Positions 6,016 through 42,933 of a DNA stretch of 64,000 nt are shown piece by piece. The notes below the pieces were generated by a model. The model made no database searches. It saw only the letters and a program-made list of their open reading frames with translations, and had not been told where the DNA came from. The DNA lies in contig CAYGFS010000001.1 of assembly GCA_964349305.1 (NCBI GenBank), positions 15,209 through 79,208 of the forward strand. The letters are read 5' to 3'. The DNA comes from an uncultured Pseudomonadales bacterium. Its GTDB lineage: Bacteria; Patescibacteriota; Microgenomatia; UBA1400; UBA12108. The translations under genes were made by a program, and so were the position numbers. Positions within the stretch are counted from its first letter, which is position 1; each line of letters starts with the position of its first letter.

Positions 6016-7043
6016 TACAAAAATGCTAGCCAGAGTCCAAGTAATGCCAGGATGATGGCGGCCAGCCATGCTCGGGTCACAATTTTGGGTTCCTCCCAGC
6101 CGATAGATTGCAGCCAGAGATGAACGGGCGAGAGTGGTAAGAGACGTCTACCGAGGTAGCGTTTACCAAACATTTGCAGCAAGCTAGAACAAATTTCGAG
6201 TACAAACAAACCCCCAATAATGGTGACCGCAATAATTTTGCCTAGCAAGAGCCCAATGACAGCGAGGGTGGCACCAAACGACAAGGCTCCCACATCCCCC
6301 ATCGTGATACGAGCAGGGTAAGTATTAAAGTAAAGAAAAGCTAAAATACCGCCCAACCACAGGGAGATAAAGAGCGTAATGGGAGTATCTAAAATAGAGG
6401 TGGCGAGGATAATCAGGGCAAACAAGGTAATCATGAGCAGTCCGCCCGCAAGACCGTCGAGTCCGTCAGTAATATTGACGGCGTTGCTAAAGGCAACAAT
6501 GATAAATGAGGAGAATGGGACAAAAAACCACCCTAGATTGATGACCCCAAAATAAGGCAAGTTGATAATACTGATCCCAAGTACGCGATAAAGATACCAA
6601 CCAATCCCAAGCCCAATCAAGGTCTGCACAATGAGTTTGAACCGCCAGGAAACCCCGACCAGGTGGGAGCTTTTGCCGAAAAACTTGATGATGTCGTCGT
6701 ATAAACCGAGTAGTCCAAATAAAATAAAAGTGGCAAATATAACATTGATTTCACCCCGATAATTGTAAACACTTTGGATATCGGCTCCGACTAATCTGAG
6801 CATGGCCATGACGAGCGCAAACAAGACAACGGTCGTCACAATGATGAGCAGGCCGCCGCCTACGGGCACCCCAGCTTTCTTTTTGTGGAGCTTGTTAAAG
6901 ATTGAGTTGACCGTCCCCATAAAATCGGCGGTTCCCCTGCCCGGCCGCTGGAATTTGAGGCTATAAAGCAAGTTGATAAAGGGAACAATCAGCGCGGCGT
7001 TGATGGTGAATGAAAAGAGGAGGAAGCCCAATAAATTGTTCAT
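6015..7043 (-). CDS. mraY: phospho-N-acetylmuramoyl-pentapeptide transferase MraY
   Basis: 342 aa polytopic membrane protein of the MraY/WecA family, in dcw context. Confidence 0.85.
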   Translation of the reverse strand: MNNLLGFLLFSFTINAALIVPFINLLYSLKFQRPGRGTADFMGTVNSIFNKLHKKKAGVPVGGGLLIIVTTVVLFALVMAMLRLVGADIQSVYNYRGEINVIFATFILFGLLGLYDDIIKFFGKSSHLVGVSWRFKLIVQTLIGLGIGWYLYRVLGISIINLPYFGVINLGWFFVPFSSFIIVAFSNAVNITDGLDGLAGGLLMITLFALIILATSILDTPITLFISLWLGGILAFLYFNTYPARITMGDVGALSFGATLAVIGLLLGKIIAVTIIGGLFVLEICSSLLQMFGKRYLGRRLLPLSPVHLWLQSIGWEEPKIVTRAWLAAIILALLGLWLAFL

Positions 7044-7387
7044 ATTAGCTTGGGAATAAAAACTACTAAACCAATGAGAGCAGCAAATATCGCTGAAATA
7101 AGTACAGCCCCAGCCGATACATCCTTCGCTCTTTTAATATTCTCGCTGTGTTCGAGCGTGACGGCGTCACATAAAAATTCGATAGAAGTATTGATCATCT
7201 CAGCCAACATGACGATTGAGATGGCGACCAGGAGATCTAAAATATGATCAAGGTCTATTTTGAGGTAGACAGCGGCAAAAATGACTAGCGAGGCGACGGC
7301 AAAGTGAATGCGGATATTGGCTTGGGTGGCAATAGCAGTCCAGATACCCCGAAAGGCATTTTGAAAGGAGATGGTGTGCTTTGACAT
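7040..7387 (-). CDS. dgkA: diacylglycerol kinase / undecaprenol kinase family protein (DgkA)
   Basis: 115 aa, three TM helices, DgkA motifs (EMINTSIE...). Embedded in the dcw operon. Confidence 0.7.
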   Translation of the reverse strand: MSKHTISFQNAFRGIWTAIATQANIRIHFAVASLVIFAAVYLKIDLDHILDLLVAISIVMLAEMINTSIEFLCDAVTLEHSENIKRAKDVSAGAVLISAIFAALIGLVVFIPKLI

Positions 7388-7411
7388 ATGACTATAATAT
7401 CACGCTTGTTG

Positions 7412-7489
7412 CCTGCAAGGACTGTCCTTGAAGCTGCCGCTTCGCCCTTCTCGGCTTGCAGCCGGGAATTCCTTTTAAGGACAGTCCTT
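7412..7489. repeat. structured palindromic element in the murA-dgkA spacer: CCTGCAAGG-led unit, palindromic 13-mers AAGGACTGTCCTT (7417-7429) and AAGGACAGTCCTT (7477-7489) flanking a GC-rich inner hairpin (GCTGCCGC..GCTTGCAGC)
   Basis: Direct reading: the two 13-mers are reverse complements of each other and each is self-complementary. The 3' copy overlaps the last codons and stop of murA. No T-tract follows, so this is not a classic intrinsic terminator. Confidence 0.6.
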
Positions 7490-8801
7490 AAATACGACGA
7501 ATATTTGCTGATAAATTCTGTAATCGCTCGTCGAAGCGTTCGTAGCCGCGATCGATTAGCTCAACGTTGTCGATCACAGACTCTCCCGTGGCCAAGATCG
7601 CAGCCATCACTAAAGTAGCACCGCCGCGAAGGTCTGGCACAGTCATGTGGGATCCGCGCAGAGGTGTGGGGCCCGTGACTTTGACGGCGTGGGGATAACT
7701 GGTAATTTCGGGATAGTTAAAATCGTAGAACTTTTCTGGGTTAACAGGTGAGGGATCGTAATACTCGATTTTGGCTCCCATCGCATTTAAATCTTTGGCA
7801 AATGCCAGGCGATGCTGGGTGACTGTTTCGACGATCTTGGATATACCTTGAGCTTGGGTCATCATAGTAGTCCAGAGTGGCTGCCAATCGGTCATGAAAC
7901 CGGGTTCAGGCGCAGTGGTGAGGTCGGCCGCAACCAAAGGTTTTTCATAATAAAAACGAATACCATAATCGGCAATGTCGTATTTACCGCCGATCTCGTC
8001 TAGCTTGGAGAGAAATGCCGTCAGATGGGCAGGGTTGGCACCCTCAACAATAATATCTCCGCGGGTAGCAATAGCCATCGTAGCGTAGGAAACGGCTTCA
8101 TTACGATCTGGCATGACAAAGTGGGTCGCGCCGTGGAGTTGGTTTACGCCGACGATCTCGACGTTGTCCCCTACTCTTTTGACTGATCCACCCATTTTGT
8201 TAAAGAATTCGATGAGATCATCAATTTCTGGTTCGTGGGCAGCATTCTCAATCACCGTTTTACCTTTGGCCAAGACAGCCGCGATAATGAGCGCTTCTGT
8301 TCCAGTGTGAGATTTTTTTTCAAAGCGATAGGTGGCGCCACGCAAACCATTCTCGGCGATCATTTGGATACCCTGGTCATCGCAAATAACGGTAGCTCCC
8401 ATAGCACGGAATCCGTCCAAGTGGCGGTCAATGGGGCGCTCTCCCAGAGCGCACCCGCCAGGGAGCGGGATAATGGCACGGCCTTTTTTGTTGAGGAGTA
8501 AACCGGCAAAGAGGGTGGCAGCCCGCGTCTTTTGCCCGGTGAAACTAGGGATTGTGTCGGTGGATAAACCATTACCCACAATATAGACCGTGTTATCTCC
8601 TGGCCGAGAGCATTTTACGCCGATGGCGTTTAGGGTTTGATAAGTTACGTCCACATCGCCGATTTGACTCATGTTGAGGAGACGCGATTCCCCGACCCCA
8701 CAGGCAGCCGCGATCATTAGCTTGAAACTAGCATTTTTGGCTCCTCCCAGACGAACTGCGCCTTTGAGGGGGGTACCGCCAATGATCTTAAAACTTGTCA
8801 T
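7488..8801 (-). CDS. murA: UDP-N-acetylglucosamine 1-carboxyvinyltransferase MurA
   Basis: 437 aa, MTSFKIIGGTPLKGAVRLGGAKNA... EPSP-synthase fold, catalytic Cys region (GGCALG). Confidence 0.9.
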   Translation of the reverse strand: MTSFKIIGGTPLKGAVRLGGAKNASFKLMIAAACGVGESRLLNMSQIGDVDVTYQTLNAIGVKCSRPGDNTVYIVGNGLSTDTIPSFTGQKTRAATLFAGLLLNKKGRAIIPLPGGCALGERPIDRHLDGFRAMGATVICDDQGIQMIAENGLRGATYRFEKKSHTGTEALIIAAVLAKGKTVIENAAHEPEIDDLIEFFNKMGGSVKRVGDNVEIVGVNQLHGATHFVMPDRNEAVSYATMAIATRGDIIVEGANPAHLTAFLSKLDEIGGKYDIADYGIRFYYEKPLVAADLTTAPEPGFMTDWQPLWTTMMTQAQGISKIVETVTQHRLAFAKDLNAMGAKIEYYDPSPVNPEKFYDFNYPEITSYPHAVKVTGPTPLRGSHMTVPDLRGGATLVMAAILATGESVIDNVELIDRGYERFDERLQNLSANIRRI

Positions 8802-8825: not shown

Positions 8826-9800
8826 CTACTTTTGGCCAATAACAATGACTTCTTCCGTCAAGTCCACTCCGTATTTTGCTTTGATTTTGGTTTTAATTTC
8901 CTGAATTAATGTGAGGACGTCGGCTGAAGTGGCAGTACCATCGTTAACGATAAAATTGGCGTGGACCTCAGAGACTGAGGCGCCTCCGACCCGGAGCCCT
9001 TTGAGACCGGCTTTGTCCAGCAAATATCCAACGGATTGAATCGTATCGGGAGTGCCCAGACGCATGGCGTCGGCGAGCGGGATATTTTTGAACATACACC
9101 CAGAACTGGGAACCCCCAGCGGCTGGGTGGTGGCACGGCGTTTCACCGCGGCATTGGCGATTTCCCACAATTCACCTTTATTCCCTCTCTTCAATTGAAA
9201 TGAAGCTGAAAGAATAGTTTCTTTGGTCTTGTGAAAAATGCTGTAATCATAATCAAATTTGAGATCTTGTTGTGTATATTTTTTGATCTTTCCCTCTTGA
9301 TCAATCGCAGCTACTTCGATGATGTGGTCGCCAAAGAGCTTATCTAAATGATGGGAGTTGTTGTAGACGGCGCCCCCCACGGTACCGGGTAGCCCCAACA
9401 TATCCTCGAGTCCCTGTAAACCCTGATCTAGAGTGTAGCGGATGAGGAGATTGGCTGGGACACCTGAATCGGCTTGGACAATCGCTTCTTTAAGGTCGAG
9501 CTTGCCGTTTTCGACCCCACCAGCGAAACCTTTGAGTTGGATACCCGAAGTTTTGTTTTTGATAACTAATCCGCGAAAACCAGCGTCGGTGACCAAGATA
9601 TTGCTGCCACCACCAATGACTAGGTAGGGGACTTTGTACATAATGGCGGATTGGACCGATGCGGCAAGCTCGTCTGATGTTTTGGCTTCGTAGAGGAGGT
9701 CGGCAGGGCCGCCGAGTTTGAAATAGGTATGTTTGGCGAGCGGTTCGTCCATTTTGAGCCGATCGGAACCGAGGGATTGGATAATAAATGAGTAATTCAT
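8826..9800 (-). CDS. murB: UDP-N-acetylenolpyruvoylglucosamine reductase MurB
   Basis: 324 aa, FAD-binding N-terminal domain (YFKLGGPADLL, VIGGGSNIL) and MurB C-terminal domain. Confidence 0.85.
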   Translation of the reverse strand: MNYSFIIQSLGSDRLKMDEPLAKHTYFKLGGPADLLYEAKTSDELAASVQSAIMYKVPYLVIGGGSNILVTDAGFRGLVIKNKTSGIQLKGFAGGVENGKLDLKEAIVQADSGVPANLLIRYTLDQGLQGLEDMLGLPGTVGGAVYNNSHHLDKLFGDHIIEVAAIDQEGKIKKYTQQDLKFDYDYSIFHKTKETILSASFQLKRGNKGELWEIANAAVKRRATTQPLGVPSSGCMFKNIPLADAMRLGTPDTIQSVGYLLDKAGLKGLRVGGASVSEVHANFIVNDGTATSADVLTLIQEIKTKIKAKYGVDLTEEVIVIGQK

Positions 9801-9810
9801 AATTTACTTT

Positions 9811-9875
9811 AAGGTCAGACCTTCCCTCCTGATTGATTATGGTCGGGTTGGGCACTTCCTTCAAGGTCTGACCTT
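9811..9875. repeat. paired 13-bp palindromes AAGGTCAGACCTT (9811-9823) and AAGGTCTGACCTT (9863-9875) with a 39-bp spacer, spanning the murC stop codon and lying 10 nt upstream of the murB start
   Basis: Direct reading: the two 13-mers are mutual reverse complements. Same architecture as the AAGGACTGTCCTT/AAGGACAGTCCTT pair at 7417-7489. Confidence 0.6.
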
Positions 9876-11215
9876 GTAGCGTCGCCTATTTTCACCCATT
9901 TTTCATGGAGTTTGTAGACAAATCCCGCACCCATGGTGAGGATGAGATCGCCAGGTTTGGAGGCGGCCCAGACAATATCGGCGGCATTGTCCCACGTGAG
10001 CGCCATGGCCGCCGAGTTATGTTTAGCCACTTCGGCGGCGAAGGACTCCGGGGTAATTTGGTGAGCTACCCCTTTTTCCCTGGCTGATTCGAAAATAGGC
10101 ATGATGAAGGGAAGATCGGACAGGGCGATCGATTTAGCAAATTCGTCCAGCAATGCTTCGGTACGGCTATAGGTATGGGACTCGAACACGAGTAGAATGC
10201 GGGAGTCAGGAAAATGTGCTTTAAATGATTGAACTGTGAGCTCAATCTCGCGTGGATGATGGCCGTAATCGTCGTAAAGTAGGCGTCCAGCAACCTCTCC
10301 ATGGCTTTCCTGGCGTCTCCCTGCTCCATGGTAGGCCTTGATCGCTGCGAGTGCTTGCGATTCGCTTAAACCGGCCTCTATGGCGGCCAAGACGGCGGCC
10401 AGTGCATCCAACTTGTTTTGATCGCCAAACACGGAGAGCTGGAGTTGGGCATAGAGCGAGTGGTTTGATCCGTATGGTATCACTTTGATATCCTGCAGGG
10501 CCTGGCCCTGAAGGTCGAGAATTTGAGCGGTCAAAGGGTCGGAGGGATTACAGATCCAAGTACCACCTACAGGAATGGAGGCCACGAGGTCGGCAAACGC
10601 CTGACGGGTAGCGGAGGCGTCCGGATAAATATCGGGATGATCGTGGATGATATTGGTGGTAATCAGGATTTGGGGAGTAAGGAGCGCAAACTTTGGCCTG
10701 GAATCAGTCTTGCTAATGGCATACTCGTCTGATTCCACCACAAAGTAGGAATCATCCCCTGCATGACCGGGGGCACTGAGCCCAGCGATAGATCCAGTAC
10801 CGACATAATACCCGACATCACGCCCAGCTGCGTGAAAAAGTGCGGCCAGCATGGCGGATGTGGTGGTCTTACCCCCAACCCCAGCCACTGAGATGACTTT
10901 TTTATCACTGACAAACTCGGCCAGAGCTTCGGCGAGTGAGAGAGGGTCAGACACTCCCGGAGTGTGGGAGCCCTTCACTCCGGGAGTGATGGATGCAGTG
11001 GCTACATAAGCCCCAGAATAAATAATTTCATCAACGTCAGGGATCGGATCGGAAAAAGATTGAATTTTGATACCTCGCTTATTCAAAATATCGTCCGTGA
11101 TAAATGACTCATTTGTGTCTGACCCAGATATAGTCCAACCGGTATCTTGCATGGCGAGAGCCAGCGAACACATCCCTACACCCTTGATCCCGATATAATA
11201 CGCTGATTTGGTCAT
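9815..11215 (-). CDS. murC: UDP-N-acetylmuramate--L-alanine ligase MurC (carries two in-frame palindromic insertions)
   Basis: 466 aa, MTKSAYYIGIKGVGMCSLA..., Mur ligase P-loop (GVGGKTTTSAML). Confidence 0.9.
   Translation of the reverse strand: MTKSAYYIGIKGVGMCSLALAMQDTGWTISGSDTNESFITDDILNKRGIKIQSFSDPIPDVDEIIYSGAYVATASITPGVKGSHTPGVSDPLSLAEALAEFVSDKKVISVAGVGGKTTTSAMLAALFHAAGRDVGYYVGTGSIAGLSAPGHAGDDSYFVVESDEYAISKTDSRPKFALLTPQILITTNIIHDHPDIYPDASATRQAFADLVASIPVGGTWICNPSDPLTAQILDLQGQALQDIKVIPYGSNHSLYAQLQLSVFGDQNKLDALAAVLAAIEAGLSESQALAAIKAYHGAGRRQESHGEVAGRLLYDDYGHHPREIELTVQSFKAHFPDSRILLVFESHTYSRTEALLDEFAKSIALSDLPFIMPIFESAREKGVAHQITPESFAAEVAKHNSAAMALTWDNAADIVWAASKPGDLILTMGAGFVYKLHEKWVKIGDATRSDLEGSAQPDHNQSGGKV
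10492..10514. repeat. family-B in-frame palindromic element copy B1 (CCTGCAGGGCCTGGCCCTGAAGG) inside murC, encoding LQGQALQ
   Basis: 22/23 identical to 42573-42595 in an unrelated GT4 gene. 11-bp arms with a 1-nt loop. Confidence 0.7.
10952..10988. repeat. family-A in-frame palindromic element copy A1 (CACTCCCGGAGTG-TGGGAGCCCTT-CACTCCGGGAGTG; arms 13 bp) inside murC, encoding TPGVKGSHTPGV
   Basis: Second copy at about 36094-36130 in a GT4 gene with the same loop, stems changed in a compensatory way (T/A swaps), and an identical encoded peptide. Confidence 0.75.
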
Positions 11216-24654: not shown

Positions 24655-25708
24655 TGATCACCTCCGCAATATCTTTGGCTACATCGTCCCAGGTGCGGGG
24701 GAATTTCAGCGGGCGACTGCGTGAGACCGCTACAACGGATTTAATTTTGCTCACTAAATCGTCGACAGAATATGGATCAAAATAAGTGACTTTGTCGCCG
24801 TACACCTCGCGATATACGGGAATATTGCTGGCAATCACCGGTGTGCCGACCATGAGAGACTCTAGCCCCACGAGGCCGTATCCCTCCATCAGAGAAGGCG
24901 TGACAAGCAGCTGGGCGTGGCAATAGACTGAGACCAATTCTTCGTCGGAAAGCCCAGATAGAATGTGGATGCGGGTGCGGTCGTACGGCGCCAGGACTCT
25001 GGCTAAAAAAGGAGATTGTTGGGATACCATAACTAGCTCGTAGTCGGGAAACTGCTTGAGAGCTTCCAGTAATACCGGGAGGTTTTTGTGGGGATAAACA
25101 TTACCGACGAATAAAATATATTTGTTGGGAATCACAAATCTTAAATTCTCAAATTTCAAATTTTTGCGGAAAATCTCGTCCGGAGCCTCGGGGATAGAGT
25201 GGATATGTTCTGGTTTGAGACCCCCGAAACTGGCTAAAATGTCGTTCTTGACGGAGTTGGTCGGGACGATGATCTCTTGCGCGCTTGCTAGGGTGCGCTG
25301 GATAACCTGGTTGTAGCCAAAACGTTTGAGGGCATATAACCAAGGCGAGCGGGTAGTCGTGTCGCTGCCCGTAAAGTGGGTTTTGATCAAATCGTGAACA
25401 GTCACTATCTTGGGGATGCCCGACAAAATGGGAGTATTGAAGTGAAAAGTGTAGAGCAGATCACTCCCCAGAGATTTGAGCAATCTCGGCAGCTTGAGCT
25501 GTTCTGCCAGAGAATAATGGGGGATATCCGCATAGACCTTCTCTACGTTGTTCCCGCCCTCGAAGTGATCATATTCGGCAGTGCGAAGTAAGACCTGCAA
25601 GGTGTAACCTTGCAGGTGTTTGGGGAGGTATTTGAGGACATTGGTGGTGTAGCGGCCGAGACCCGTGTGACCGGAACCATAAAACCTGGCATCGATGGCG
25701 ATCTTCAT
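24632..25708 (-). CDS. glycosyltransferase family 4
   Basis: Start set at MKIAIDARFYG; C-terminal PSLMEGYGLVGLESLMVGTPVIAS. Carries family-B palindromic element copy B3. Confidence 0.8.
   Translation of the reverse strand: MKIAIDARFYGSGHTGLGRYTTNVLKYLPKHLQGYTLQVLLRTAEYDHFEGGNNVEKVYADIPHYSLAEQLKLPRLLKSLGSDLLYTFHFNTPILSGIPKIVTVHDLIKTHFTGSDTTTRSPWLYALKRFGYNQVIQRTLASAQEIIVPTNSVKNDILASFGGLKPEHIHSIPEAPDEIFRKNLKFENLRFVIPNKYILFVGNVYPHKNLPVLLEALKQFPDYELVMVSQQSPFLARVLAPYDRTRIHILSGLSDEELVSVYCHAQLLVTPSLMEGYGLVGLESLMVGTPVIASNIPVYREVYGDKVTYFDPYSVDDLVSKIKSVVAVSRSRPLKFPRTWDDVAKDIAEVINARSHSL
25593..25617. repeat. family-B in-frame palindromic element copy B3 (ACCTGCAAGGT-GTA-ACCTTGCAGGT) inside a GT4 gene, encoding HLQGYTLQV
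   Basis: 11-bp arms with a 3-nt loop. The outer CCTGCA..TGCAGG matches copies B1/B2, while the inner arms differ but stay complementary. Confidence 0.6.
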
Positions 25709-35768: not shown

Positions 35769-36849
35769 AGACCTCCAAGATATTTTTTGCGGTTGATTCC
35801 CAGGTAAATTGACTGGCTTGCTTGAGCCCACGAACTTTGAGAGTGGCATGGCTGGCAAGGGCGGTGGTGATGCCTAGTCTGATAGAGTCGATGTCGAGTG
35901 GATTGACGAGAATAGCGGCTTCGCCCGCAATTTCGGGGAGAGATGAGAGACTCGAGGTGACGACCGGCGTACCACAGGCCATGGCTTCGAGCACGGGGAA
36001 ACCAAAGCCTTCATAAAGTGAGGGGAAAGCAAAGACACTGGCGCCGCTATAGAGCCCGGGTAAGTCAGACTCGGGGACAAAACCTAACGCAATCACACCC
36101 GGTGTGTGGGAGCCCTTCACACCGGGTGTGTCGGGTACACCCCAGCCGTGCTTGCCCACAATGACAAGCGGCAGCTCCTGACCTTTGGCGGCTTCGGCTA
36201 AACGGTCAATATTTTTGCGAGGTTCTTGAGTACCTAATGAGAGAATATATTTTTCTGGTAACTTATATTTAGTTTTCACTCGATCTATTTCTTCCTTCGA
36301 TTGAGACAAATATTGTGGAGATACACCTGGATAAACTACGTCAATGCGCAGCGGTGAGAGATTGTATATTTCCACTAGATCATTTTTTGTACTCATTGAA
36401 TCTGCGATAATATGAGTGTCGGAACTGACAATCTTTTTGAGCCGTCTAGTTTGGGTTCCCAGGATGAGCGAGTCAACGGTCTCGGGATATTTGACAAATA
36501 CTAGGTCGTGAACGGTCGTGACAATTTTGGCTTTGGCACTGGGCTGGCTCCAATCCGATGCGTGTACCAAATCGACCGCGCCGGTTAAGAGCTCAAACGG
36601 AATCGAGGTATCGTTTAAGGCATAACCGGCTAGTTTAGGCGGAAGCGGGAAAATCTTCCAGGTAGCTTTGTCCCAGGGTGAGGTCTGACTGAGCCGCGTA
36701 AAAAATGCACGCTGGCGGAGCGTGCCGGCATAGAGCACAAATTCGTGAGGTGAATTTGAGTTTAATAATGCTTCGGTTAAACCCTTCACATATCTGGCTA
36801 CCCCAGTCCCTTCGTAACACATCTGAGAAACGTCGATCGCGATTTTCAT
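35743..36849 (-). CDS. glycosyltransferase family 4 (carries family-A palindromic insertion encoding TPGVKGSHTPGV)
   Basis: MKIAIDVSQMCYEGTGVARYV... C-terminal PSLYEGFGFPVLEAMACGTPVV. Confidence 0.8.
   Translation of the reverse strand: MKIAIDVSQMCYEGTGVARYVKGLTEALLNSNSPHEFVLYAGTLRQRAFFTRLSQTSPWDKATWKIFPLPPKLAGYALNDTSIPFELLTGAVDLVHASDWSQPSAKAKIVTTVHDLVFVKYPETVDSLILGTQTRRLKKIVSSDTHIIADSMSTKNDLVEIYNLSPLRIDVVYPGVSPQYLSQSKEEIDRVKTKYKLPEKYILSLGTQEPRKNIDRLAEAAKGQELPLVIVGKHGWGVPDTPGVKGSHTPGVIALGFVPESDLPGLYSGASVFAFPSLYEGFGFPVLEAMACGTPVVTSSLSSLPEIAGEAAILVNPLDIDSIRLGITTALASHATLKVRGLKQASQFTWESTAKNILEVYEKIANRH
36094..36130. repeat. family-A in-frame palindromic element copy A2 (CACACCCGGTGTG-TGGGAGCCCTT-CACACCGGGTGTG)
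   Basis: Same loop as copy A1 at 10952-10988. Both 13-bp arms differ from A1 at two positions yet remain perfectly complementary. Coordinates +/-2. Confidence 0.75.
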
Positions 36850-41882: not shown

Positions 41883-42933
41883 GAAACTCCTGACTAATTT
41901 GTTTGACCACTGATTTTAACGCGTATGGTTTGAGCTGTGCGCCATAGTCGATTTTGCTGAGTGAGTGAGCTTGCTTGATCCCCTCGACGATGGCTGTGAT
42001 ATTGTGCGGATCGACATAGATACCCTGGTTGCCGATGATGTCACGACGGATGGGGTCGTCTGAGGCCACGATGGGGAGACCGGCAGCCATCGCTTCAAGG
42101 TACACCATCCCAAATGCTTCTTGAGGATCTGGTACAAAACAAAAGATATCACTGCCGCGATAGTAATCAGCTATCTCGCTATGTTCGACTTGTTTGATCC
42201 ATTTGAACTCACCGGGATAGTGACTGAGTTGCCTGGCAATATGACCCTGCTCTTCCCCGTCCCCCACTAAACAGAGTGATACTGACAGCTGGGAAGTGGC
42301 GGCAATCACCGAATCCACATTTTTGTATTTGGAAAGGGCGGAAACAGTGAGAACGACGGGGGACGGGAGTCCAGTAAGGGGTTTATGCTTGCCTCGGAAA
42401 GGTGTTGGATCGAACGGATTGGGGATATAGACGACTTTGGTGGATGAGGGAGCGATCCCACGAGCCCACACCTCTGCATCTGGTGTCAGAGCAACGAATA
42501 AATCTGGTATGGCGCGCAGGCTAGATTTGTCGTGATGACCAATACCGGCATGGCCAAAAGTGATTATCTTGGCCTGCAGGGCCTGGCCCTGCAGGATACG
42601 AACTTGGAGTGGACCGTTAATGGCTACGATAATGTCGGGCTTAAATAGAGCCAGCTGGGGAATGGAGGACTGGGTAAACTGGGCGACCAACCCACTCTCC
42701 TGGTCGACGTGGAGACGAAAAAGTAATTTCTCCCACATATTGCGGGGGGCAGAGGGCGGGATTTGACTAAGTGGGTTAACTCGTTTGACTAAGTAGGGCT
42801 TGGGCGATACAGGGCCTGATTGGATCATGAGGACGTCGTGATGTTTGGATAGTTCACTGGCGAGTTGATCGACCACGACCTCGCTACCTCTTTCGATAAG
42901 TCCCATGGTCATGTGCAAAAAAATTATTCTCAT
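41866..42933 (-). CDS. glycosyltransferase family 4
   Basis: C-terminal FGMVYLEAMAAGLPIVAS. Carries family-B element copy B2 encoding ILQGQALQA. Confidence 0.75.
   Translation of the reverse strand: MRIIFLHMTMGLIERGSEVVVDQLASELSKHHDVLMIQSGPVSPKPYLVKRVNPLSQIPPSAPRNMWEKLLFRLHVDQESGLVAQFTQSSIPQLALFKPDIIVAINGPLQVRILQGQALQAKIITFGHAGIGHHDKSSLRAIPDLFVALTPDAEVWARGIAPSSTKVVYIPNPFDPTPFRGKHKPLTGLPSPVVLTVSALSKYKNVDSVIAATSQLSVSLCLVGDGEEQGHIARQLSHYPGEFKWIKQVEHSEIADYYRGSDIFCFVPDPQEAFGMVYLEAMAAGLPIVASDDPIRRDIIGNQGIYVDPHNITAIVEGIKQAHSLSKIDYGAQLKPYALKSVVKQISQEFHDLIK
42573..42595. repeat. family-B in-frame palindromic element copy B2 (CCTGCAGGGCC-T-GGCCCTGCAGG), perfect 11-bp arms
   Basis: Near-identical (22/23) to copy B1 at 10492-10514 in murC. 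Confidence 0.7.

Follow-up and report, generated by a model that had tools for sequence, protein, structure and literature searches.

Rickettsia palindromic elements (RPEs) are short hairpin-forming repeats without coding capacity of their own, which are found between genes as well as in frame in many unrelated genes, where their open frame adds a peptide to the host protein (PMC10969869). They are about 100–150 bp long and specific to Rickettsia. REPINs consist of two inverted (nearly) palindromic units that, together with a spacer, form one long hairpin; they are often found at the 3' ends of genes and are conserved in structure over sequence (PMC3116915, PMC3337134). By definition they are extragenic, and their spacer is variable. 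Bacterial MITEs (Correia/CREE, ERIC and SPRITE) have terminal inverted repeats, lie at gene boundaries, form hairpins in the mRNA and can supply promoters (PMC10969869). Among them, Correia elements bear promoters and are substrates of RNase III; where Correia and ERIC elements stand at the ends of genes, RNase III or RNase E cleaves them (PMC10969869). A search of the literature for palindromic elements or MITEs of CPR/Patescibacteria yielded nothing relevant and no description of the family reported here, whose members were found from an element, E1, at the junction of murA and dgkA.

Structure of the element between murA and dgkA

The window, by which we mean the whole stretch of 64,000 nucleotides that was analysed, derives from a Microgenomates-group CPR bacterium; the best relatives of its MurA (68–82% identity) belong to MAGs labelled Woesebacteria or Microgenomates. 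On the minus strand it carries the cell-wall genes murC (9815–11215), murB (8826–9800) and murA (7488–8801; EPSP_synthase) and the gene dgkA (7040–7387), the product of which matches DAGK_prokar; the cell-wall genes mraY, murI and murD come after dgkA. The spacer between murA and dgkA is exactly 100 nt long (7388–7487). The complete E1 covers 73 nt of the minus strand (7417–7489) and consists, in the mRNA sense, of a 5' arm, a junction, a first hairpin, a linker, a second hairpin and a 3' arm. The 5' arm (AAGGACTGTCCTT, 7477–7489) forms 13 bp with the 3' arm (AAGGACAGTCCTT, 7417–7429), and its first two bases finish the stop codon of murA (TAA, 7488–7490, minus strand), which is at the same codon position in the relatives. 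An earlier note on this DNA had described two mutually reverse-complementary 13-mers, the second overlapping the murA stop, and the sequence is exactly so: on the forward strand, positions 7417–7429 read AAGGACTGTCCTT and positions 7477–7489 read AAGGACAGTCCTT, which are perfect reverse complements, and the overlap amounts to two bases. The pairing is perfect over 13 nt and reaches 16 nt if one mismatch is allowed. Each arm is also self-complementary apart from its centre base and is thus a 6-N-6 palindrome.

For the interior, a single hairpin closed by GCTGC/GCAGC had been proposed; instead there are two, both supported by covariation, and E1 is a three-way junction of three helices, not one nested hairpin. 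The junction strand (AAAAGGAA, 7469–7476) is conserved, purine-rich and single-stranded, with the consensus AAMAGGAA in alignments A1 and A2. Hairpin 1 (UUC-C-CGGCU GCA AGCCG-A-GAA, 7448–7468) has eight base pairs, a conserved C.A mismatch and a GCA loop; changes on both sides were found at three of these eight pairs (UUC/GAA to AAC/GUU or GAC/GUC; CGGCU/AGCCG to CGAGU/ACUCG). It is followed by the linker GGGC (7444–7447), of which GGG is conserved in both alignments, and by hairpin 2 (GAAGC GGCA GCUUC, 7430–7443), which is always GC-rich and varies in sequence among the copies, with changes on both sides at four of its five pairs (variants UCGCC/GGCGA, UCGUC/GACGA and CCCCG../..CGGGG). The flank GCAGG (7412–7416) lengthens the 3' arm to a 23-nt unit resembling the single palindromes described below; arm plus flank (CTTCAAGGACAGTCCTTGCAGG) agree with the consensus of these, CCTKCARGG-N5-CCYTGMAGG.

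The minimum-energy folds obtained with RNA and with DNA parameters are identical and equal the covariation-supported structure. The RNA fold has an energy of −39.1 kcal/mol, with z-scores of −4.3 for the mRNA strand and −5.9 for the plus strand, and none of 200 shuffles folded as well. When the three-helix structure was tested on alignment A1 (seven sequences), 95.6% of the cells were paired and 13 of the 26 base pairs showed compensatory changes on both sides; these values were reached by none of 500 shuffles, and slid controls were 34–53% paired. The seed search pattern fixed the invariant arm positions only, and the three free positions were complementary although the pattern did not demand it. 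Perfect inverted repeats of at least 13 nt with a gap of 15–90 nt occur twice in the 64 kb (E1 and 9811–9875), against a chance expectation of ∼0.07 by our own estimate. With one mismatch allowed, the window has 11 inverted repeats of at least 12 pairs versus 1–4 in shuffles.

E1 as a probable insertion, absent from most relatives

Comparison of the spacer among close relatives, as suggested in the earlier note, gave a divided result. In 12 of 13 relatives murA and dgkA are separated by 10–40 nt without any element; the remaining one (L006) has a hairpin of ∼70 nt at this place, with a recognisably homologous interior and quite different arms (GGGAGTCTTCCTC / GAGGAGACTCCC). This 'orthologous' copy resembles E1 of the window less than copies at unrelated loci do. 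Since the spacer of most relatives is short and without the element, we infer that E1 is an insertion, which would have taken place at the murA stop codon.

The murC/murB junction is equally variable. It is minimal (tttaagctaaaaTAAgaccATG) and without an element in L003, L006 and L021, carries a second element of the window, E2, in the window and in L004, L005 and L007, and contains a full E1-type element in L015 and P0131; L002 has a short 18-bp hairpin, the two mismatches of which are G.U only on the mRNA strand. In L015 (1659–3974) and P0131, MurC and MurB form one ORF of ∼770 residues, in which the E1-type element is a 24-residue linker; this fusion via an E1-type element is found in two different lineages.

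A dispersed family with copies inside protein-coding genes

A metagenome scan with the pattern AAGGNCNGNCCTT-N30-60-AAGGNCNGNCCTT returned many unrelated palindrome pairs together with homologues of the E1 interior (L085, L095, L170 and, twice, L171) and one homologue of E2 (L141). A covariance model derived from E1, R1, scored 96.8 bits on E1 of the window (7412–7494, minus strand) and gave full-length matches of 67–102 bits in L006, L015, L095, L085, L170, L171 and L202. Outside the seed it matched L015 (72.8 bits), a third copy in L171, the NCBI MAG L202 (91 bits) and E2 of the window. The E1 homologues are 73–79 nt long and occur in intergenic DNA too; copies are frequent at gene junctions, often exactly at stop or start codons. 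Two contigs that carry the element, L157 and L095, derive from groundwater and sediment samples. The 64-kb window contains two related elements (E1 and E2), and L171 has three copies within one ORF of 462 residues.

Many copies lie in frame within ORFs. The element has an open frame of the form RSDL/RTVL-NRNSRLQAEKG...-RSDL, and the coding copies measure 73 or 79 nt, which is 1 mod 3; the frame xxA-AGG-NCN-GNC-CTT is used in all of them except a divergent one in L171 (1583–1655). An exhaustive HMMER profile search with the encoded peptide, from which P0123 was left out as an unrelated low-complexity repeat protein, gave 13 further proteins of unrelated families, including O-antigen-ligase-type (Wzy_C), Citrate_bind and integrase-SAM-like proteins. 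A word-indexed search with a 48-aa concatenated element peptide returned two small ORFs only and was too insensitive for a census. The hosts of in-frame copies comprise ClpB, a Wzy_C O-antigen ligase, a Citrate_bind (ATP-citrate-lyase-like) protein, an integrase-like protein and the MurC–MurB fusion. At least three protein families within one lineage carry an identical version of the element peptide. The peptide predicted for the copies in ClpB and the Wzy-type ligase includes NRNSRLQAEKGSPAGER. The link between intergenic and in-frame palindromes drawn in the earlier note is thereby borne out: E1-type copies stand in frame in ClpB, the O-antigen ligase and other proteins, and the 3' arm with its flank fits the single-palindrome consensus, which is enriched in the clade (10 observed vs 0.45 expected). 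Translational bypass of the gene-60/byp-like kind had been raised by the identical arm-encoded RSDL...RSDL, but was dropped, there being no need for it: no coding copy interrupts the reading frame, and the lengths of 1 mod 3 are consistent with read-through.

The ClpB-like gene of L095 has an in-frame copy (9274–9346) that can be compared with filled and empty counterparts. A single AAA_2 match (459–646) spans the copy and ClpB_D2-small then follows in frame; the insert is absent from the Beckwithbacteria orthologues P0006 and P0007 (27-residue gap), and P0015 (L203, 11758–11811), from another Beckwithbacteria lineage than L095, carries at this codon position a mini version of 43 nt with which the full element shares its 3' arm and junction. 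A decayed older arm is located just upstream of the full 73-nt element in L095. Judged from these sequences, one element appears to take the place of another where an arm is present. In L141, an E2-type copy lies antisense within TatD, and a single Pfam match (3–257) spans it. Two other predicted proteins, P0124 and P0127, agree in every one of their first 100 residues, as far as the element peptide, and beyond it turn into Citrate_bind and a membrane protein, respectively; this divergence, expected of a multi-copy repeat, likely reflects a contig mis-join or recombination at the repeat.

Patchy occupation of orthologous sites, different members at one site, a window copy nearer to those at unrelated loci and the large number of host genes together indicate an insertion-type family. 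E1 is therefore, in our judgement, probably a copy of an undescribed family of small non-coding palindromic repeats of a selfish, insertion type in Microgenomates-group CPR bacteria (Woesebacteria-/Beckwithbacteria-like). The unit of such a family would be 73–79 nt long, with two 13-nt terminal inverted arms around a purine junction, a GCA-loop hairpin and a variable GC hairpin, and its in-frame copies would be translated through the one open frame as a surface-loop-like peptide.

The second element and a possible role for the host

E2 is 65 nt long (9811–9875, minus strand) and is located at the 3' end of murC, just ahead of the murB start. Its arms (AAGGTCAGACCTT and AAGGTCTGACCTT) differ from those of E1 by compensated changes at two positions (5 and 9) and by a flipped centre base, and model R1 scored 28.2 bits on it (E = 1.5e-5). 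E2 provides murC with its last ∼20 codons and its stop codon, the Mur_ligase_C domain of its product ends at residue 431 of 466, and murB begins 10 nt after the element. Orthologous copies in L004, L005 and L007 are 84–94% identical, versus 62–76% for the flanking coding DNA and 36–47% for third codon positions; such conservation would be explained by purifying selection, and hence a host function, no less well than by recent spread. Inside E2 (9836–9864, minus strand) we noticed a promoter-like TTGAAG-N17-CATAAT followed by AGGAGG ∼25 nt before the murB ATG, both of which are conserved in the E2 orthologues of L004, L005 and L007. Expression signals of murB may come from E2.

That the E2 orthologues are far more conserved than neutral sites speaks for a different explanation, in which E1 and E2 are a domesticated cis-acting RNA that punctuates the mur operon, the 13-bp stem serving as an RNase III-type processing site, a 3' stabiliser or an attenuator that uncouples murA from dgkA and murC from murB. 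The very stable, covariation-supported fold points the same way, with six G.U pairs against two A.C pairs on the sense (mRNA) strand, as do the TTGAAG-N17-CATAAT and AGGAGG just 5' of murB and the orientation of the E1-type copies: all of those with an interpretable context (9–10) are in sense, although an antisense frame (RSDLSPAGEPFSACSREFLLRSDL) is also open. Correia and ERIC elements at gene ends, which are cleaved by RNases (PMC10969869), offer a precedent. However, E1 is missing from the murA–dgkA junction in 12 of 13 relatives, the arm sequences vary from site to site, and the in-frame copies in ClpB, the Wzy-type ligase and elsewhere would, if cleaved, cost these genes their mRNA. We consider a domesticated operon RNA unlikely.

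Some of these observations nevertheless bear on the nature of the insertion-type family. The restriction of E1-type copies to the sense orientation is not predicted for a purely DNA-level selfish element. The structure of E1 has been kept through many compensatory changes between the window and L006, which could reflect selection on the RNA. Conservation of E2, its promoter-like box and the sense bias would fit a role at the level of the host or the RNA, or else a strand-specific mechanism. A more far-reaching proposal is that the elements are a functional, strand-specific nucleic acid, a conserved three-way-junction RNA or single-stranded DNA for which CPR bacteria have a dedicated enzyme (RNA-processing or -ligating, or a hairpin-specific HUH-type recombinase), that they spread in sense via an RNA or lagging-strand single-stranded intermediate and that hosts have co-opted them as operon punctuation and for joining or splitting genes such as murC–murB; we give this proposal only an outside chance.

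Promoter and termination signals around E1

An extended −10-like box (TGATATTAT, TGaTATTAT; 7394–7402, minus strand) is present 6 nt 5' of the dgkA ATG (7385–7387) and is located outside E1. Its TATTAT (7394–7399) has TG-n ahead and is of the extended −10 type; the distance to the ATG had earlier been given as 4 nt and is in fact 6 nt. A TATAMT-type box 6–7 nt before the dgkA ATG was found in L002, L003, L004, L005, L006, L008, L010, L011, L013, L016, L017, L021 and L028, that is, in every relative that keeps murA and dgkA adjacent. Because all such relatives have it, the leaderless-type dgkA promoter that the earlier note had considered possible is supported, and it would be independent of E1. 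A −35 element contributed by the 3' arm was also considered and rejected, as there was no consistent spacing.

The GC-rich hairpin directly 3' of the murA stop could suggest a non-canonical terminator, either without a U-tract and acting on murA, or on the plus strand, where hairpin 1 and TTCCTTTT would block antisense transcription into the mur operon. A scan of the plus strand gave one terminator-like site, namely hairpin 1 (7448–7468) followed by TTCCTTTT / TTCCTTTTAA, and the promoter-like box of dgkA itself is compatible with termination after murA. Against this, there is no U-tract (T-run) 3' of the E1 stem on the transcribed strand, the sense strand of which goes on as GCAGGCAAC; a terminator scan of the minus strand between 6900 and 10100 found none; and the plus-strand tail of most family members (TTCCTGTT) is a poor U-tract. 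In-frame copies in essential genes would moreover stop their own hosts, and the relatives do without the element. A terminator function is improbable. The absence of these canonical features, at the sequence level, together with the homologues at many unrelated loci, agrees with the initial description of E1 as a repeat element and not a canonical terminator.

Other palindromes and the origin of the compensatory changes

Several other palindromes were noticed. A 37-nt in-frame mini-palindrome, CAC[T/A]CCCGG[A/T]GTG-AAGGGCTCCCA-CAC[T/A]CCGGG[A/T]GTG, occurs at 10952–10988 and 36094–36130, with the change in the arms compensated. Both copies encode TPGVKGSHTPGV, one in MurC and the other in a glycosyltransferase-like ORF; the former is a 12-residue insertion specific to the window as compared with 11 relatives. 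Single 23-nt in-frame palindromes of the type CCTKCARGG-N5-CCYTGMAGG are present at 10492–10514, 25594–25616 and 42573–42595 and encode LQGxxLQ. At the murC site, L002, L006, L007, L015, L017 and L019 have retained a palindrome, the centre of which covaries. The 23-nt singles are not enriched in distant CPR loci (3 vs 0.7 expected), as they are in the close clade (10 vs 0.45). The 5' part of murC contains a 12–14-nt inverted repeat, GAGGTCCGTCCCCT-N17-AGGGGACGGACCTC, in L004 (1777–1821), L015 (1893–1937) and L021 (1885–1925), which corresponds to a protein segment RNLEVRPL that is missing from MurC of the window. Unrelated metagenomic elements with AAGGNCNGNCCTT-type arms around a DnaA-box-like TGTGGATAA / TTATCCACA were found in L121, L094, L134, L125, L178 and L091; L121 has three identical such copies (1195, 1769 and 3946) in 5 kb. 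Another repeat family, in L082, L108 and L172 (1822–1890 and 7383–7453), has AAGGTCAGACCTT arms around a perfect long hairpin, the tip of which differs by compensated changes between copies on one contig.

Template-switch correction of quasi-palindromes during replication is established in E. coli, and the compensatory changes in E1 could be mutational in this sense, E1 being a self-perfecting DNA palindrome without structural function. The occurrence of several unrelated types of in-frame palindrome in the window, all with compensated arms (the 37-nt CACNCC-type minis and the 23-nt singles), suggests a genome-wide process. Template switching leaves unexplained, however, the conservation of the unpaired junction and loop and the near-identity of copies across genomes and loci, and we hold it to be very improbable. 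The remaining possibility, that the 13-mers are operators 60 bp apart through which a dimeric regulator loops the DNA at the dgkA promoter (candidate site AAGGWCNGWCCTT), draws on the 6-N-6 palindrome as the classic form of a dimer site, the adjoining promoter-like box and the second pair upstream of murB, but is rejected as close to refuted because the arm sequences are not conserved: they differ between E1 and E2 in one genome, are unrecognisable in L006 (GGGAGTCTTCCTC / GAGGAGACTCCC) and form mutual inverted repeats without self-palindromes in L085, L170 and the RTLL/RRVL copies, while copies lie inside coding regions far from promoters and it is the pairing of the arms, and no fixed motif, that covaries.

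Mode of spread and local effect

We return to E1 as a member of a selfish, insertion-type repeat family. No target-site duplication was seen in the 5-nt flanks of about 9–10 copies, the boundaries of which are uncertain to a few bases, nor in comparisons of filled with empty sites at murA/dgkA, murC/murB and ClpB. No transposase was recognised by eye among the ORFs of the 64-kb window or among eight ORFs compared with Pfam. The mobility of the family is inferred, since neither a target-site duplication nor, in the window, a transposase was found. The missing duplication favours copying over cut-and-paste transposition, and the repeated reuse of arm-bearing sites suggests arm homology or hairpin intermediates. 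In the most tentative part of our proposal, the elements would spread by copying between sites that already bear arm-like palindromes, via a single-stranded hairpin intermediate or by recombination at homologous arms. Duplication of a palindromic target site as the origin of the arms was rejected; the two arms have complementary, not identical, centre bases, and some copies show three differences between their arms when these are read as direct repeats.

E1 is presumably co-transcribed with murA and would fold as a stable three-way junction (∼−39 kcal/mol), with dgkA retaining its own conserved leaderless-type −10 box downstream. Locally it is most likely neutral, or it serves the murA message as a modest stabilising or insulating hairpin at the 3' end.

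CPR/Patescibacteria genomes are tiny and thought to be streamlined, and in these genomes structured repeats would be colonising essential genes in frame (ClpB, MurC/MurB, O-antigen ligase). If this interpretation is correct, the family is a second, independent case of Rickettsia-like selfish DNA in protein-coding genes. The repeat lengthens or fuses ORFs, as in the murC tail and the MurC–MurB fusions; it can also cause mis-joins of MAG contigs and mislead predictors of terminators and sRNAs. The covariation-backed three-way junction and the sense-strand bias provide a testable handle on how such elements move.

Comparison with known systems

The whole window was compared with all 4227 Rfam families and gave no match at the gathering threshold; permissive local Rfam scans yielded sub-threshold hairpin look-alikes only. 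E1 of the window aligns with RAGATH-21 (RF03097) over its full length and on the correct strand, with the CCUUAAnAGnAA junction, a hairpin and GAG in common. Its score is 21.3 bits, however, versus a gathering score of 70.3, and other family members do not match; as the copies of L171 gave no match, this identity was dropped and the similarity treated as chance. No mention of RAGATH-21 was found in the literature. Searches for tRNA and tmRNA found none, and a viral collection contained no exact match to the E1 core or the 5' part of E2.

E1 shares with an intrinsic terminator the GC-rich stem-loop straight after a stop codon, but it has no U-tract on the transcribed strand, its stem encloses two more hairpins, and copies occur inside ORFs. 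Its perfect 13-nt terminal inverted repeats, the pairing of which is conserved across copies, its position at gene boundaries, the hairpin predicted for the mRNA and the possible promoters are those of bacterial MITEs such as Correia/CREE, ERIC and SPRITE; unlike these, the family is much shorter, has no visible target-site duplication and no known parent IS with the same ends. The likeness to REPINs lies in the two inverted palindromic units of E1 and E2, the long hairpin at the 3' end of a gene and the conservation of structure over sequence. The family differs from them in that its members are often intragenic and in frame, that the interior of E1 is conserved and structured instead of variable, and that self-palindromic arms are not universal (L085, L170 and the RTLL/RRVL copies lack them); no gene for a RAYT (Y1 HUH transposase) was seen in the 64-kb window. 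Of the defining features that were tested, one is lacking for each of these classes: the U-tract of a terminator, the visible target-site duplication of a MITE, the extragenic location of a REPIN and a match to an Rfam family at threshold.

RPEs, with which the family was compared by description, differ in being ∼100–150 bp long and specific to Rickettsia, versus 73–79 nt in Microgenomates/CPR, and the three-way junction, the perfect 13-nt arms and the sense orientation of all coding E1-type copies set the E1 family apart. The two have in common that they are short hairpin-forming repeats without their own coding capacity, that they are found in intergenic DNA and in frame in many unrelated genes, to which their open frame adds a peptide, and that their hosts have small, reduced genomes. 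By this analogy, RPEs are the closest counterpart of the E1 family, which also carries architectural echoes of REPINs and of gene-end MITEs.
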